Positions 2,350 to 53,849 of a stretch of 64,000 nucleotides of DNA are shown here, in pieces. Position 1 is the first letter of the stretch, and each line of letters begins with the position of its first letter. A model generated the notes under the pieces. The model made no database searches. It had not been told where the DNA came from and saw nothing but the letters and a program-made list of their open reading frames with translations. The DNA is from Escherichia coli (GTDB taxonomy: Bacteria; Pseudomonadota; Gammaproteobacteria; Enterobacterales; Enterobacteriaceae), in the NCBI RefSeq assembly GCF_050920415.1, contig NZ_CP169309.1. One strand, given 5' to 3'. A program made the translations under genes and the position numbers.

Positions 2350-4029
2350 TTATTGCGGGTAAGGCACCCAGTCGCCGCCGTTCAGGCGAACGTACGGTTT
2401 ATCCTGGTATTGAATAACTACTGCATTTGAGTTCTCGGAGACCGGTGCTGTTTGTGGCAACCCACTGGTGAGTTTTTTCCAGTCAACATTGTCTTCGGTG
2501 AAAATCTTACCATCAAGAACGCGAACCACCAGATCGGAGATAGCCAGGAAGCTGCTCGGTTGGTTGATGACAATCGGTGCCCCCTGATGTGGTGCCTTCA
2601 TGCCGAAGAATTTCACCCCAACGGGGACGTCTGTGATAGACGGGCTAGGGATATCACGTAGGCCAGATACCTGCATTCTGTCGCCCTTCAGCGCGCCACC
2701 GTGTTCCGGCACCACTACCACCATCACTTTACGACCCGATTTCTCCAGTTCAGTAAAGAAGGCGTCCAGCTCATCAAAGAATTTCTGCGCTCGCGCTTTG
2801 TAATCCGCTGTTTTGCTGACGCCCGGATAATGGTTGCCGTCATGCAGTGGAAGCGTGTTGTAGAACGTGGCACTACGGCTGTTTTTATCTTTTTCGGTAA
2901 CGTCCAGCCAGCGGTTAAGCACGGCGGTATCGTCATAAACCGGCGAACCATCAAAGCCCAACAAAATAACCGGCAGATTTGTTTGATCCATCAATTCGGT
3001 CTGCATGCCGCCATTTTCGCGAACTTCTTTCAAAAAACCGCCGAACTGGCCGTTATGTCCCATCATCAGGTGCTGGGTAAAGCCCAGTTTCGACAGGTTA
3101 TCAAACAGATAGCAGTCGTTATTTGCCGGTTGATACAGATTAGTGTGCGAAGTCTGCCCGCAGCTGGCGCGCAGTAAACGGATCGCCGCCGGGCCACTGT
3201 AGGAGGTGGCGGAGTTAAAGTTCTTGAACTCAATATCGAAATGCGACCACAGCGGATGCGACATCAACCCGGCGGCTTCAATATCCGACCAGGAAAGCGA
3301 ACAGATATTAATCACCAGTAGTTCAAATGGCTGAGCATCAGCGGGCAGCGAAGACGGGAAGGTCGATTTACGTTTCGCCTCCGCGTTATAGAAATTATTC
3401 AGCCAGGCGTTAAGGTTCGCCGTTGTTGGCGGTGCAGTTTGTGCGGGCATATCACCCACTACCGGTGCGCCACCCGTCGCCGCAACGGTTGCCGCTGCGT
3501 TACCACCCGTCGTTGTTACAGTGGTCGTCGGTTGACCGGCAGGCCACAAGGAGAAACTTGGTCCCGCCAGGGTAAGTACGTTCAGCCATAGCAGAATGGC
3601 AACCACAAAAACGGTAATGCGAATCCATTGTGACAGGAATAACCAGGCCACTAATAAAACAAAAATGGCCCCAATCATCTGCCAGTTAATAAAGCGTGTG
3701 ACAAGGTCGATTAAATAATCGGTACTGAACCCCGCCACCTGCGAACCCTGGCTCATTATGCTTTCCGGGCCAGGCAACCAGGTGTCATGCCAGAACAAAG
3801 CAAAGCCGATCGGCAGGGCAATCCAGTGGCGTAAGCGATGCAGGCTGTAGCGCGGAATGGGCATCAGCAGAAACGCGGCAAACACCAGATTGAGGAGCGG
3901 ATGGAAGTTAAGATATCCCGCCCACAACAGGCCGAACTTAACCAGAAAATAGAAGTTCCAGCCGGAAAGGCCGCGCCAGTATTGCCAGAGGGAAGAAGGC
4001 ATGGCGGTATTTTGCGTAAATTGAGTCAT
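2350..4029 (-). CDS. bcsG: Cellulose phosphoethanolamine transferase BcsG (YhjU)
   Basis: 559-aa ORF with N-terminal membrane segments and a C-terminal sulfatase-like domain; length and position match BcsG. Confidence 0.9.
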
Positions 4030-4217
4030 TTTTTGGTTGCCCTGGCTTTTTCCGTGCGGCGTAACGTCCCGGCCGGTTTAACATAACGAGGTTTAGCAAA
4101 GAACAAACGTAAGGTGTCGCGAATGCGTCGCAAAGAGTGCCGCGCCAGATAGCCCAGCGGGAAAAATATCAGTGCGCAAACGACAATAATTTCAATGATA
4201 TCGCTGATGGTCATCAT
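4026..4217 (-). CDS. bcsF: Cellulose biosynthesis protein BcsF (YhjT), small membrane protein
   Basis: 63 aa, [27 protein letters not shown]...; overlaps bcsG by 4 nt. Confidence 0.88.
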
Positions 4218-5785
4218 GATGAGCGCTCCACAGCATCATCTAACAGTCGCATTGGTTCTGGTATTCTTCGCCAGTGGCGACCATCGTGCTCGGCATTGAT
4301 GACCGGTTTAGAACTTTGCGTTAAAGGCAGCGGCATGCCCCATTGTTCTGGGGCAAGCAGGCGCATCTGCACCAGCTCGGCACTGATTTGATCATCTTCA
4401 AACCAGACCATACGGTTTGAGAAAATGTCGCCAGTCGGCAATGGGAAAATATGATTCAACGCGGTATCCAGATCGTTAATCCGACAGAATGAGAGAAACA
4501 GCACCAGCCGATTACCGCCAATGGTCATGATATCGCCGGTACGGTTAGGGCGACACAGCGTCAGGGCTTGCTCAACGCGGATACCCGGTACCGGACGTAG
4601 GGCAACCAGAACGCCTTTACCATGTGCAGGCAAGAGAGGGTTATTCATCATGTTGTTAACGGCATTACAGAACACATCCCACTTCTGGAAACCACGCAGT
4701 TTGAGCGGCTGGGTCATTGACAGCAAGGTAGTGATATCTTCCGGCACATAGCGACTAAACTTCTGCCCTTGCACGCTTTCGATCATCGTCAGACAGCGGG
4801 AGAGTGGCGCATTCCACGGGATAACCATATTTGCACCGCAGGCCAATAATAAACGTTCATCGGTGGCGCGCAGGCTTGCAGTATTTTCCCGTACGAGGAT
4901 TTTCATCGCACTACCGCGCTGGCGACGCAGAGTATGAATGCTGCGGGCCAGTGGCTCGATTTGCGCATTTTGCTGTAAAGAAAAGACCACCGTCGCCGCC
5001 TGAGCTGTACGGGCTTCATTGAACAGAACTTCGTTATTGTTGAACAGTTGCCAGTGTTCCGATAGGGGCGGTGCACCTTCCAGTACAGCAACATTACTCA
5101 GAATGCGTTTTTCGTCGCTGCGTGGTTGGATCTCCGCCTCTTCGCTTTGAACTAATGTCCAGATACCATTTTGTTGCTGAACGCTAAGCTGCTGACGGGC
5201 GCTGACCCCTTTTTCGTTGCACCAGAAGGCAATATCCAGCAAATGTTGGTCGCCCTGAAAACGCAAACTGGCAAGACCAAAAAGTGAACGGTATTCCTCA
5301 AGCAACAATGAAAATTGTTTATCGTTATTATTTCCGGGATTAATTACCAAAAGCGAACAATGGTTTAACCTGCTCCATTTATTCATTTTATCCAACCATG
5401 AGCGAAGCCGCTCGGCAGGAATGTTTTGCCATGCGTTATTTGCGCAAACAAGAATAAAAAGGTAATTATTGGGATCAATAGAACACTGCAAATCACGGGC
5501 CAAATAGTATAGACCTTTTTCATGATTTAGCATTGAAAATAATTTTATTTTTTCCGGCCCTTGAGAATCATCTAATTGAAAGATTTTCGCCGGATCGCTG
5601 TCCATGCTAATGACCGCGACGTGTGCGGTTTCAGCCTGGGATGCAATTGTTTGATTCGCCAGACTGATAGCATCTTCATGGCGATCGACGTTAAACCACC
5701 AGACGCCGCCTGCTGGCATATGTCGCAGCTCATCCCATAATGATGAGATACCGATAGAGAATACAGGGTCCACAATGTCCCTCAT
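4214..5785 (-). CDS. bcsE: Cellulose biosynthesis protein BcsE (YhjS), c-di-GMP-binding
   Basis: 523 aa; overlaps the bcsF start by 4 nt; divergent from bcsR. Confidence 0.9.
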
Positions 5786-48459: not shown

Positions 48460-49683
48460 TTATGGGGTTATATTCTGGTAATGATTTGATAAGCGAATTC
48501 TTTTGCCAGTTGGTATTTCTATTTCCACCCCATAATTTATAGTTTTTTCATCAGGTAGCGATCTCTTTAAATAAGGTGCGTATGACATTTTTTTAGGATG
48601 AAACGTATCGTGTTGAAATATTTCGAATTGATATTCAGACATTTCTGCCCATGTTTGAATTTTATTGTATCGGGAGAGTGTCGTAAAGGCTTTAACTTGC
48701 TTATAACATTGTTTTTGGAATTCTTGCTGATATTTTATTATGTCGTTGTATGAAAGATTATTTACCCTGGTTTCTAATAATTCTATTATTGTCGAAGCAA
48801 TTTCCGCTTTTGCTCTTAAAGAGTTGTCATTAATGGTTAATAATGTTGAAAATAAACCATTGATTTGTTTGTCAACATATTGTTCATCTTTATGTAATTT
48901 TGTGATAGGGTTTTCCTTATGTGAAAAAATAGTATCAAATAAATTTGCGTCAGTGAAGTTTACATTAAGTAGATCTTCGAAATAAAACCTTGACAAGGTT
49001 AGAACGAACCCGGACAGGTCCTGTCCTGTCATATTGAAATCAATAAAGTTGGTTCCAGCAAAGACTTTCATCCTGTTTTCATTTTTACTGTGCTCAATAT
49101 ACAACCTTGTCATTTTTTGGTACAAGCGTTGAATATCTTTTATATCAGTTGGTAGATCAGTTCGTTGCCCAGAAAAATTTTTATTTTCGGAAGAAACGGT
49201 TTGGACACTGAATCTTACTGGTATTCCCTCTTCTACGAGAATTTTAGTTATGATTGGCTTATTGGGCTTAGGATTAAAGACAACAATGATTTTAGATTCA
49301 GAGTTTTTATTCTTTTCGTATCTAATGTTATTAATCTGATTAAGTATTGATTGTGTCTGTTGCGTAAGTGGTGTCGAACTTATCGTTTCAATGTTATTAA
49401 TAAGTTTTACAAGTTGAGCCACAACTTTTGAGTAGTCTGCATTTGTATATGTGGTGTTCGTGTGGCACGCATTAATTTGTTGGAGTTGTTGTTTCGCTAA
49501 ATCAAATTGTTCAGCGTTATATCCTTCTTCAGACAATGAAAAATTAACGGGTTGCTGTTCTTCCTGATTATCACAAGGCCACATCGGTGTGTTTGGTGTT
49601 TTAACATTGTCGGTATCTGTTGTGCGGTTATAAATATCGCCGTGATATGTGTTTATCATACCTGGGGTAAAGTCAATTGACAT
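48460..49683 (-). CDS. AT-rich hypothetical protein, 407 aa, possibly an uninterrupted yhiS ortholog
   Basis: Low-GC ORF rich in N, K and Q; segment [41 protein letters not shown] resembles pentapeptide-type repeats. Sits between slp and the ars region, where K-12 has an IS5-disrupted yhiS. Confidence 0.6.
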
Positions 49684-50263: not shown

Positions 50264-51277
50264 TTAAAATAGCATTTGAGTCAAATAGCCCATCAAGATA
50301 GCCATACCTAAGATAACCGTCAGGAATGCAACTATCATCGGTATTCTGAACATTGATTTAAGTAATATCACTTCCGTCAGGCTTGCTCCGGCACTGCCGA
50401 TGATTAATGCCATTAATGCTCCCGGACCCATTCCTTTTGTCATCAGAACAGATGCCAGAGGGATAACCGCCTCTGCCCGGATATACAGCGGGATTCCGAC
50501 AACGGCGCTCAATGGGATGGCGAAGGGATTATCTGCCCCTGCATGAGCGGCAATCCACTCTGAGGGAATAAAGCCATAAATAAAAGAGCCTATTAATACC
50601 CCTAACAAAAGATATGGCAGTACATCTTTAAACTGTTGCAACGCATCTTTGGTGGCTAGTTTTATGGGATTAATACTTACCACAGCTTTGGTACTGCAAC
50701 AGTTTACTACAGGTTTCTCAATGGCTTTAGCCGCTGGACTACAGCAACTCACTTTTATTGGCGTATAAGTCGTCCCCGGCGAAGTTTTGGCTGGAGAGCA
50801 ACAATTTGCTGATGAGCTTTTACTGGCAATGATATGACGTTCAAATCTCAGAGAATCCAGGATAATACTGGCAAGTACGGAGACGCCGGCGGCGATAATC
50901 GCGTACAACAAGGTAACTTTCCAACCAAAGGTCACCCACATTAACCCGACGATAATGGGATTAAGTAACGGTGAAACAAATAAAAAAGTGAGAGTCGGAC
51001 CAAACCCGGCTTTCGCTGACAACAATCCACGTAGCATGGGTATTGTCGAGCAACTACAGAACGGGGTAACGGCTCCCAACAGAGCAGCCAGGAGATAGCC
51101 TCTCCCTTTTCTGGCCCCCATCATCTGCTGGATTTTATGGTCTGGCACCTTTTGTCTTATCAGGCTGACACCGGCACTAATCACTATAAACAGCAAAGAA
51201 AGCTCGACGGCGAGAAACACAAACATCTCTGCGGCATCTTGCAGCATCGCAAGCCAACTACTCATAAGTAACCTCAT
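50264..51277 (-). CDS. Cysteine-rich polytopic permease of the DUF318/ArsP-like type (putative metalloid or organoarsenical efflux permease)
   Basis: 337 aa with multiple TM segments; TPFCSCSTIP motif; central hydrophilic loop with three vicinal Cys pairs (NCCS, SCCS, NCCS). Divergent from an ArsR-family regulator. Confidence 0.7.
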   Translation of the reverse strand: MRLLMSSWLAMLQDAAEMFVFLAVELSLLFIVISAGVSLIRQKVPDHKIQQMMGARKGRGYLLAALLGAVTPFCSCSTIPMLRGLLSAKAGFGPTLTFLFVSPLLNPIIVGLMWVTFGWKVTLLYAIIAAGVSVLASIILDSLRFERHIIASKSSSANCCSPAKTSPGTTYTPIKVSCCSPAAKAIEKPVVNCCSTKAVVSINPIKLATKDALQQFKDVLPYLLLGVLIGSFIYGFIPSEWIAAHAGADNPFAIPLSAVVGIPLYIRAEAVIPLASVLMTKGMGPGALMALIIGSAGASLTEVILLKSMFRIPMIVAFLTVILGMAILMGYLTQMLF

Positions 51278-51289
51278 TGAATAAAACTA

Positions 51290-51311
51290 TATTTCCAGAA
51301 TAATCGAAATA
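51290..51311. promoter_or_regulatory. Candidate operator, palindrome 1, in the permease/regulator divergent intergenic region
   Basis: TATTTC-N10-GAAATA dyad (tatttccagaataatcgaaata). Confidence 0.4.
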
Positions 51312-51324
51312 AAGTTCAGATCAA

Positions 51325-51350
51325 GATATTTCTGGTATTATCGAAATATC
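51325..51350. promoter_or_regulatory. Candidate operator, palindrome 2
   Basis: GATATTTC-N10-GAAATATC with perfect 8-bp inverted arms, 37 bp centre-to-centre from palindrome 1 and about 25 bp upstream of the regulator ATG. Confidence 0.45.
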
Positions 51351-51372
51351 AACCAGACAGAGGGGGTGACAC

Positions 51373-51693
51373 ATGCAATTGGAAGAGGTCGCTAAGGCAC
51401 TGAAAGAGTTAGGTCATCCGACCCGTTTGTTCATATTTAAGCATCTGGTCAAAGCGGGGGAACAAGGTTTGCCGGTCGGTGAGTTGCAAAAGCAGCTTGG
51501 GATACCCGGCTCTACACTCAGTCACCATATTTCAGCACTGGTATCGGTAGGGTTGGTCAAACAAAACCGTGAGAGTCGGACGCTGATGTGTGTTTCGCAA
51601 TACGCAATGCTGGAAGCGATAATTGAATTCTTACGTGAGGAGTGCTGCGTAAACAGCAAAACAGATAGCGAAGGAGCCACGAAGAACAAATAA
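51373..51693 (+). CDS. ArsR/SmtB-family winged-helix transcriptional regulator (accessory, second ArsR-type gene)
   Basis: 106 aa; LGHPTRLFIFKHL...PGSTLSHHISALVSVGLV is a typical ArsR HTH; C-terminal cysteines (LMCVSQ...EECCVN) rather than the helix-3 CVC site; AGGGGG SD before the ATG. Confidence 0.75.
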   Translation: MQLEEVAKALKELGHPTRLFIFKHLVKAGEQGLPVGELQKQLGIPGSTLSHHISALVSVGLVKQNRESRTLMCVSQYAMLEAIIEFLREECCVNSKTDSEGATKNK

Positions 51694-51708
51694 GGGGGCA
51701 TATCCCCC
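51694..51708. terminator. Compact bidirectional terminator between the accessory regulator and arsC (convergent)
   Basis: gggggcatatccccc hairpin flanked by T-rich sequence on both strands in a 20-bp convergent gap. Confidence 0.45.
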
Positions 51709-51713
51709 TATAG

Positions 51714-53495: not shown

Positions 53496-53849
53496 TTAAC
53501 TACAAATATTCTTACTGTCTGCGGAACAATTTTGTCTGGCGAGGTTACGGACAATCACCTGAACCTTTTCCTGTTCGCATCGCCAGGCCTGCTCAATAAT
53601 TTTCGCCGCCCATGCTGGAATATGCGGCGATAAACGGTAATGAACCCACTTTCCTTGCTTGCGGTCCAGCAATAGCCCACTTTCACGCAGTAATGCCAGA
53701 TGGCGGGAGATCTTGGGCTGCGACTGATCGAGGGCAGTGCACAGATCGCAGACGCATAACTCTCCCAGTTCGCTGAGCAGTAAAACGATGCCCAGACGGG
53801 TTTCATCGGCAAGAATTTTGAAGAGTTGGATGGGTAACAGAAATGACAT
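53496..53849 (-). CDS. arsR: Arsenical resistance operon repressor ArsR
   Basis: 117 aa with HTH and ELCVCDLC metalloid-binding motif. Confidence 0.93.
   Translation of the reverse strand: MSFLLPIQLFKILADETRLGIVLLLSELGELCVCDLCTALDQSQPKISRHLALLRESGLLLDRKQGKWVHYRLSPHIPAWAAKIIEQAWRCEQEKVQVIVRNLARQNCSADSKNICS

Follow-up and report, generated by a model that had tools for sequence, protein, structure and literature searches.

Type-1 ArsR repressors, the R773 and chromosomal proteins, carry their site for trivalent arsenic (As(III)), CVCDLC, at the start of the DNA-binding helix (PMC11868830, PMC6555750). For SpArsR of Shewanella putrefaciens 200, two reports describe a repressor selective for trivalent methylarsenic (MAs(III)), with Cys101 and Cys102 and without the third ligand of AfArsR (PMC11868830, PMC13236881). 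On the export side, ArsP of Campylobacter jejuni is summarised as an exporter of MAs(III) and trivalent roxarsone (Rox(III)), not of As(III) (PMC6205960). The operators of SmtB/ArsR proteins consist of one or two imperfect 12-2-12 inverted repeats near or over the -10 element or the transcription start, each bound by one dimer (PMC8790569, PMC6555750). Here we analyse two candidate operators of this kind in a 64-kb stretch of the Escherichia coli chromosome (contig NZ_CP169309.1, below called the window), where they lie between the gene for a 106-residue ArsR/SmtB-family regulator and the adjoining, divergent gene for a permease of family PF03773.

We put the probability at roughly 85% that the permease-proximal site, O1, and the regulator-proximal site, O2, are operators of an SpArsR-type repressor that would shut its own promoter and that of the ArsP-type permease, and that trivalent organoarsenicals would release. 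A previous reading of the sequence alone had proposed paired operators through which an autoregulatory ArsR-family dimer controls both divergent genes; this proposal is supported, on comparative grounds, by the conservation of the sites, by their linkage to the regulator and by the SpArsR orthologue.

Two inverted repeats and their linkage to the regulator

The sequence-only reading had placed two dyads at 51290-51311 and 51325-51350, and both strings stand at these coordinates. The second site has perfect 8-bp arms (GATATTTC and GAAATATC, 10 bp apart) and the two are 37 bp apart, both as described there. The arms of the first site are perfect over 6 bp and 91% complementary over 11 nt (51285-51295 and 51306-51316), and the two sites also form a 23-nt direct repeat with 83% identity and a 37-bp period. 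With up to one mismatch allowed, the pattern TATTTC-N10-GAAATA has two matches in the window, both in this intergenic region; the chance expectation is 0.17, and none of 100 dinucleotide-preserving shuffles reached at least two. Scored with a matrix built from the orthologous loci, O1 and O2 reach 36.7 and 37.3 bits, against a maximum of 11.7 bits in 20 random 64-kb sequences. One further matrix match in the window (AATAATTCTATTATTGTCGAAGCAAT, 48776-48801, 17.5 bits) was rejected as a third operator: it lies inside a 407-residue open reading frame (48460-49683) in AT-rich DNA and is probably a chance match. Apart from this weak intragenic match, neither the arsRBC promoter nor the rest of the window holds a site of at least 12 bits.

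Across the divergent loci, the consensus of the 26-bp site is TATATTTC-TAGTATTATC-GAAATATA, in which the positions ATTTC, TC and GAA are conserved at 90-99% and the ATTTC/GAAAT arms at 97-99%. The ATC directly before GAAAT is conserved as strongly as the arms, and since the inner positions are conserved in this way, the ten central positions belong to the half-sites and do not form a spacer. The TATTTC-N10-GAAATA architecture of the earlier reading is therefore real as a pattern, but its N10 is not neutral. Written as a 12-2-12 repeat, the consensus is TATATTTCTAGT-AT-TATCGAAATATA; the outer arms of the two window sites are perfect over 8 bp and 6 bp, and the Vibrio sites are perfect 12-2-12 repeats (TATATTTCGATA-AA-TATCGAAATATA).

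We aligned the window's intergenic region (alignment A1) with those of two further chromosomal alleles and two plasmids, the plasmid copies being about 84% identical to the window over a 331-bp query centred on this region. In this alignment O2 together with TCAA forms a 30-bp block without change between chromosome and plasmids. The right half of O1, AGAATAATCGAAAT, is likewise invariant between them; the last A of the first site (51311) is replaced by G in both further chromosomal alleles. Beyond E. coli, a scan with the regulator profile, limited to one genome per species, gave 80 loci, about 45 of which keep a divergent permease orthologue (40-84% identity). The palindrome had been proposed as something to look for upstream of homologous permeases in other genomes, and it is conserved there: all 46 divergent regulator/permease intergenic regions, the window included, contain at least two sites. 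They come from Aeromonas, Vibrio, Photobacterium, Shewanella, Pseudoalteromonas, Pseudovibrio, a Desulfobulbus metagenome-assembled genome (MAG) and others, and the remaining intergenic DNA of these loci is unrelated or unalignable.

Counting the exact E. coli pattern instead of matches to the trained matrix provides a non-circular test of the link between sites and regulator. In 79 non-Escherichia loci the pattern occurs 56 times in the 20.5 kb upstream of the regulator gene (260 bp per locus; 2.73 per kb) and 6 times in the 380 kb elsewhere in those loci (0.016 per kb), an enrichment of about 170-fold. The regulator-proximal site ends 20-23 nt before the regulator ATG in most of the 79. The association also holds in reverse: among 120 metagenome loci chosen only for paired ATTTC-N10-GAAAT dyads, 35 have a gene for an ArsR homologue on their contig, and in most of these 35 the homologue adjoins the paired sites.

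The number of sites varies with the layout of the locus. Loci without a permease within 2.5 kb, where the partner genes are heterogeneous, keep a single site, which starts at about -46 relative to the regulator ATG and ends some 20 nt before it. In loci with the permease downstream of the regulator (L029, L052, L071, L072, L043), the permease gene is preceded by two additional sites, about 50 bp apart; Vibrio loci whose intergenic region is long contain three. A two-site module stands before the permease in the divergent, the three-site and most of the downstream-permease loci. These layouts suggest a modular rule in which one site would serve autoregulation and two would serve the permease; in the 37-bp class, comprising E. 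coli, Aeromonas and the Desulfobulbus MAG, they suggest that the two units have fused and that O2 serves both genes.

Some loci carry other genes near the regulator. In Moritella sp. PE36 (L085, 2955-3030) two operator-like sites, 50 bp apart and scoring 24.5 and 22.5 bits, precede a glutathione synthase homologue downstream of the regulator (3020-4528; eukaryotic-type glutathione synthase TIGR01986, 223 bits, below the cut-off), and on plasmid pEC012-2 a frameshifted glutathione synthase gene lies about 4 kb from the regulator/permease pair (L003, from 9629). Three Vibrio loci without a nearby permease share a conserved 128-residue membrane protein just 3' of the regulator (L034 1070-1456, L041 2844-3230, L061 3020-3406), which has no NCBIfam match.

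A regulator of the SpArsR type and its permease

The regulator has an ArsR/SmtB winged-helix domain (NCBIfam NF033788, 61.7 bits against a cut-off of 55; Pfam HTH_20, E 2.9e-14, and HTH_5, E 1.6e-6). Its recognition helix IPGSTLSHHISAL (PGSTLSHH), Cys73 and the triplet Glu90-Cys91-Cys92 are invariant in 23 homologues. The vicinal cysteine pair stands at the C-terminal end of the last helix, in register with Cys101/102 of SpArsR and Cys95/96 of AfArsR; AfArsR (6J05) is also the best solved-structure match (E 2.7e-10), with Cys91/92 aligned to Cys95/96. The tail after the pair, VNSKTDSEGATKNK, has no cysteine and so no equivalent of AfArsR Cys102. The CVCDLC As(III) site of type-1 ArsR is absent from the 106-residue protein, and a separate arsR gene in the window (53496-53849) carries ELCVCDLC. 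In other chromosomal alleles (L004, L005) the regulator is annotated with 98 residues (WP_001175589; coding sequence 297 nt) rather than the 106 given here, and the homologues in a second alignment (A2) differ in tail length past the Cys-Cys motif.

For a direct comparison with SpArsR, we took from the supplement of PMC12124457 the promoter of S. putrefaciens arsP (Sput200_1226; the 222 bp before the gene) and the codon-optimised SpArsR gene (Sput200_1227), and reconstructed the protein from the printed gene with two bases restored. The result has 105 residues with cysteines at 83, 101 and 102, as in the literature numbering. The E. coli regulator aligns to it without gaps at 58% identity (E 3e-41), with an identical recognition helix, with Cys91/92 opposite Cys101/102 and with Cys73 opposite Cys83. 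By its sequence, the regulator fits the published definition of SpArsR, namely a C-terminal cysteine pair without an equivalent of Cys102. SpArsR has a 10-residue N-terminal extension relative to the E. coli protein; the start of SpArsR reads MNIAD-MNVAD-MNVEN and looks as though a 15-nt unit at the gene start had been tandemly triplicated.

The similarity extends to the DNA. The S. putrefaciens fragment contains two sites, TTAATTTCTGGAATTATGGAAATATT (30.2 bits) and GATATTTCTGGTATTATCGAATTACT (28.9 bits), the second of which nearly copies E. coli O2 and is separated from arsR by about 17-19 nt; O2 is nearly identical to GATATTTCTGGTATTATCGAATTA of this fragment. On its minus strand we read by eye TTGAAA-17-TATTAT beside a degenerate third site, which recalls the Vibrio layout. 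In an arsRBC-deleted E. coli strain the fragment is repressed by SpArsR and is fully on without the repressor; 1 uM trivalent monomethylarsenic (MMAs(III)) induces it to 73% of the repressor-less control, and 50 uM As(III) only to 9% (PMC12124457). By analogy, the likely inducers of the E. coli system are trivalent organoarsenicals such as MAs(III) rather than As(III) or trivalent antimony (Sb(III)). Our literature search, made with motif strings, protein accessions and PF03773/DUF318, brought up no paper on the locus in E. coli or on plasmids; the primary SpArsR and AfArsR papers lay outside that search, and the operator motif may already have been published for these proteins.

These data also bear on whether the dyads might be bound by another protein, for example a global regulator or the canonical CVC-type ArsR, whose gene lies 2 kb off. 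Cross-talk is conceivable with arsRBC adjacent, but the motif accompanies the regulator family on plasmids and in genera where no arsRBC was found beside the pair, at a fixed distance from the ATG; the arsRBC promoter scored no site in the matrix scan described above, and SpArsR alone suffices in the arsRBC-deleted strain. We consider binding by a protein other than the adjacent regulator exceedingly unlikely.

The permease matches Pfam ArsP_1 over residues 13-334 (E 6.6e-53) and falls below the NCBIfam cut-offs for SO_0444 copper/zinc efflux proteins (115.8 bits against 300) and SaoE (90.1 bits against 325). It has a Cys-rich loop and an FCSCS motif at residues 69-73; CSC is a signature motif of related PF03773 families (10.1101/2022.07.06.499078). 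The position of the operator sites implies that the regulator would control the permease gene, and the partnership with an SpArsR-type regulator points, by analogy, to organoarsenicals as the putative substrate. A predicted loop at residues 150-193 (50687-50818, minus strand) contains three vicinal cysteine pairs whose surroundings repeat (NCCSP, SCCSP and NCCST), and the plasmid alleles of the permease are longer, at 377 and 345 residues compared with 333.

Predicted promoters and a model of control

Conserved hexamers within and beside the sites allow promoters to be predicted for both genes (Table 1). At positions 12-17 of the regulator-proximal site, nearly all 46 loci have TATTAT, TAATAT or a similar hexamer, and agreement with TATAAT averages 4.5 of 6 positions; in E. 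coli this predicted regulator -10 is preceded by TG, and in the three-site Vibrio loci the hexamer is paired with TTGAAT or TTGAAA at 17 bp. On the minus strand, a hexamer reading TTGACA, TTGATC, TTGACC, TTGACT, TTGACG or TTGCAx abuts O2 in 28 of 31 two-site loci, and the predicted permease -10 lies 16-18 bp from it. In the 37-bp class the middle of the distal site reads TATTCT or TATTTT at all eight loci, with a 16-bp spacer, and in the 48-50-bp class the predicted permease -10 (TATATT or TATAAT) lies on the right arm of the distal site. Given these positions, each operator would overlap the -10 of one promoter, and O2 would also touch the -35 of the other.

A generic promoter scan gave two other hexamer pairs, which we rejected. 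TTGAAT-16-AATAAT, on the plus strand over O1, is conserved neither in Aeromonas nor in the 49-bp class; its TTGAAT becomes a perfect TTGACA in the plasmid copies, and it is possibly a secondary, E. coli-specific promoter. TTGATA-18-TATCTT, on the minus strand over O2, loses its -35 in the plasmid copies.

We infer by comparison that the E. coli protein binds these sites and represses from them. One repressor homodimer would sit on each 26-bp repeat, contacting it through the recognition helix PGSTLSHH. At O2 it would cover the extended -10 of the regulator's own promoter, and at O1 the -10 of the permease promoter, whose predicted -35 abuts O2. With both sites overlapping the predicted promoters, occupancy should shut the two back-to-back promoters. 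A trivalent organoarsenical such as MAs(III) would bind Cys91 and Cys92, with a possible contribution from Cys73, and release the repressor; efflux would then be switched on and the repressor level reset.

Some ArsR-family proteins act positively, and the named activator HlyU is among the solved-structure matches of the regulator, so that the protein might instead activate from these sites, or activate one gene and repress the other. The sites, however, overlap predicted -10 hexamers and start regions and do not lie upstream of a -35, and the SpArsR orthologue represses the arsP promoter, which is fully on in the construct without repressor. Activation is in our view very unlikely. A further alternative is that the inverted repeats work as RNA hairpins, either attenuators or stability elements of the 5' leader, and not as DNA operators. 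Each dyad can fold as a hairpin, and the minus-strand fold is somewhat better than that of shuffled sequences (z = -2.1), but the plus-strand fold is ordinary (z = -0.38), the intergenic dyads have no Rfam match, the predicted transcription starts fall within or beyond the sites, and the arms, at the 97-99% noted above, are conserved as sequence and not through compensatory change. This is the least probable of all the explanations considered.

Several observations weigh against repression from O1 and O2 as we propose it. The biosensor result concerns the whole promoter fragment and not its individual sites (PMC12124457), and 58% identity to SpArsR is no guarantee that the ligand is the same. 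Other PF03773 members confer zinc or copper resistance (10.1101/2022.07.06.499078). For the regulator promoter, the two-site loci offer no convincing -35, and the generic scan chose hexamer pairs other than those of our layout. The sites of the divergent loci are spaced by 25, 37, 48-50 or 63 bp, with no constant helical phase, and for this reason cooperative contact between two dimers is not supported; to judge from these sequences, the spacing seems to be set by promoter geometry and not by dimer-dimer contact.

The remaining objection concerns O1. Its left arm is degenerate in the plasmid alleles (CGTTTC and TTATTC), its right arm is degenerate in one Aeromonas MAG and reads GTGGAATC in locus L007, and E. 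coli alleles differ in its last base, whereas O2 is invariant. Together with the single site that suffices for regulators without a nearby permease, this variability is the basis of the most serious alternative, that only O2 works and that O1 adds little, as a weak auxiliary or a decaying duplicate. Against it, O1 scores as high as O2, its right half is unchanged between chromosome and plasmids, the predicted permease -10 lies inside it, and a two-site module with its members 25-63 bp apart stands before the permease in the layouts seen, including the downstream-permease loci listed above. We therefore consider it unlikely that O2 alone is functional, and retain the two-operator reading.

Genomic context and comparison with described systems

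The features of the locus are collected in Table 1. The earlier reading had given 95 bp for the intergenic region, which we correct to 107 bp: the permease start in RefSeq is the ATG at 51265, GAGG stands before it in the window and AGAGGG in the copies on plasmids, and the in-frame ATG upstream of it is missing from the plasmid copies.

Table 1. Coordinates of the predicted and annotated features around the regulator/permease intergenic region (numbering of the window).
Feature	Position	Strand	Basis and remarks
Candidate operator O1, permease-proximal; 26-bp imperfect 12-2-12 inverted repeat TATATTTCCAGAATAATCGAAATAAA	51288..51313		Pattern and matrix; contains the first site of the sequence-only reading
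Candidate operator O2, regulator-proximal; GATATTTCTGGTATTATCGAAATATC	51325..51350		Pattern and matrix; ends 22 nt before the regulator ATG
Predicted extended -10, TGG-TATTAT (TGGTATTAT), of the regulator promoter, inside O2	51333..51341	+	Conserved hexamer; predicted start near 51348
Predicted -35, TTGATC, of the permease promoter, abutting O2	51319..51324	-	Conserved hexamer
Predicted -10, TATTCT, of the permease promoter, centre of O1	51297..51302	-	16 bp from the -35; predicted start near 51290
Regulator gene, 106 residues, ArsR/SmtB family, SpArsR type	51373..51693	+	Domain searches, homologue alignment, comparison with SpArsR
Permease gene, 333 residues, Pfam ArsP_1 (PF03773)	50264..51265	-	RefSeq start, domain search
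Shine-Dalgarno sequence of the regulator, GAGGGGG	51360..51366	+	Read from sequence
Shine-Dalgarno sequence of the permease, GAGG	51272..51275	-	6 nt before the ATG; AGAGGG in plasmid copies
GC-rich hairpin AGGGGGCATATCCCCCT, candidate bidirectional terminator	51693..51709		Terminator scan, called on both strands

In the window, the order of genes is hdeD-hdeAB-yhiD-dctR-slp, the unnamed permease and the ArsR/SmtB regulator, then arsC-arsB-arsR and gor. The GC-rich hairpin sits precisely between the stop codons of the regulator gene and arsC, which converge here. As the terminator scan calls it on either strand, the two genes may share it as a bidirectional terminator.

The permease/regulator pair belongs to the accessory genome: of 5426 complete E. 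coli genomes, 2221 (about 41%) contain at least 80% of a 1.55-kb query, and the same genome collection has 364 plasmid places for the pair. Strain K-12 is without it. In PLSDB, 640 plasmids match the pair at 80-90% identity (about 83%), mostly from Escherichia, Salmonella and Klebsiella, with Citrobacter and others; most of these plasmids are conjugative. On both plasmids that we examined, a Tn3-family transposase, IS1 and IS26 flank the pair (L002, pHFQ1, 3983-5545; L003, pEC012-2, 4079-5544). Several of the listed pair-bearing plasmids come from chickens and pigs, animals in which organoarsenical feed additives have been used.

The analysis gives the pair, unnamed and yet present in about 4 in 10 sequenced E. 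coli and on many resistance plasmids, a specific and testable function, which is likely to be the sensing and export of methylated or aromatic trivalent arsenicals. Such compounds are the toxic forms that arise from arsenic-methylating microbes and from organoarsenical feed additives. It is a tentative further step, which we hold to be possible but somewhat doubtful, to regard the E. coli pair as a dedicated sensor and efflux module for trivalent organoarsenicals whose compact control region arose when a one-site unit for autoregulation and a two-site unit for the permease fused. The base-resolution operator model and promoter layout cover one-, two- and three-site architectures across Gammaproteobacteria, and could help to find further regulon members and to improve MAs(III) biosensors.

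Compared with described systems, the locus is closest to SpArsR and arsP, with which it shares a PF03773-type permease neighbour and the operator motif. The arrangement differs: the S. putrefaciens intergenic region has 222 bp, with strong sites 108 bp apart and the degenerate third site, whereas E. coli has two sites 37 bp apart within 107 bp. AfArsR of Acidithiobacillus ferrooxidans, with its type-2 As(III) site of Cys95, Cys96 and Cys102, has its vicinal cysteine pair in register with that of the E. coli protein, but the identity is only about 30-36%, and the E. coli protein has the conserved Cys73 and lacks the third As(III) ligand.

Soil-metagenome ArsR proteins, about 32-38% identical and with an AfArsR-like C-terminal LTENCC motif, adjoin paired ATTTC-N10-GAAAT dyads that flank TTGAC (L096, L097, L107, L125, L131, L133, L135, L138, L140, L144, L161, L170, L173, L197 and L198). 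As LTENCC regulators also stand beside such dyads, ArsR proteins with a C-terminal cysteine pair may share the operator arms and the two-site layout. If true, a common ATTTC...GAAAT code would open the way to regulon prediction, including thiol-metabolism genes such as glutathione synthase, and to the rational design of MAs(III) biosensors.

The smtA operator/promoter, with repeats S2/S1 and S4/S3, and the divergent ziaR-ziaA pair resemble the E. coli locus in their 12-2-12 repeats and divergent repressor gene. The half-site is different, TATATTTCGATA here compared with the TGAACA-type cores in the repeat table for Anabaena (PMC8790569). The effector differs as well, being here, as we propose, a thiol-bound metalloid or organoarsenical and there zinc at the alpha5 site. 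In the tetR-tetA system, TetR O1 and O2 are likewise two dyads between divergent repressor and efflux genes, each bound by one dimer and jointly controlling the two overlapping promoters; the analogy is one of logic only, as protein fold and effector are unrelated. The switch proposed here is of a known type, newly located in E. coli, and its mechanism is not new.

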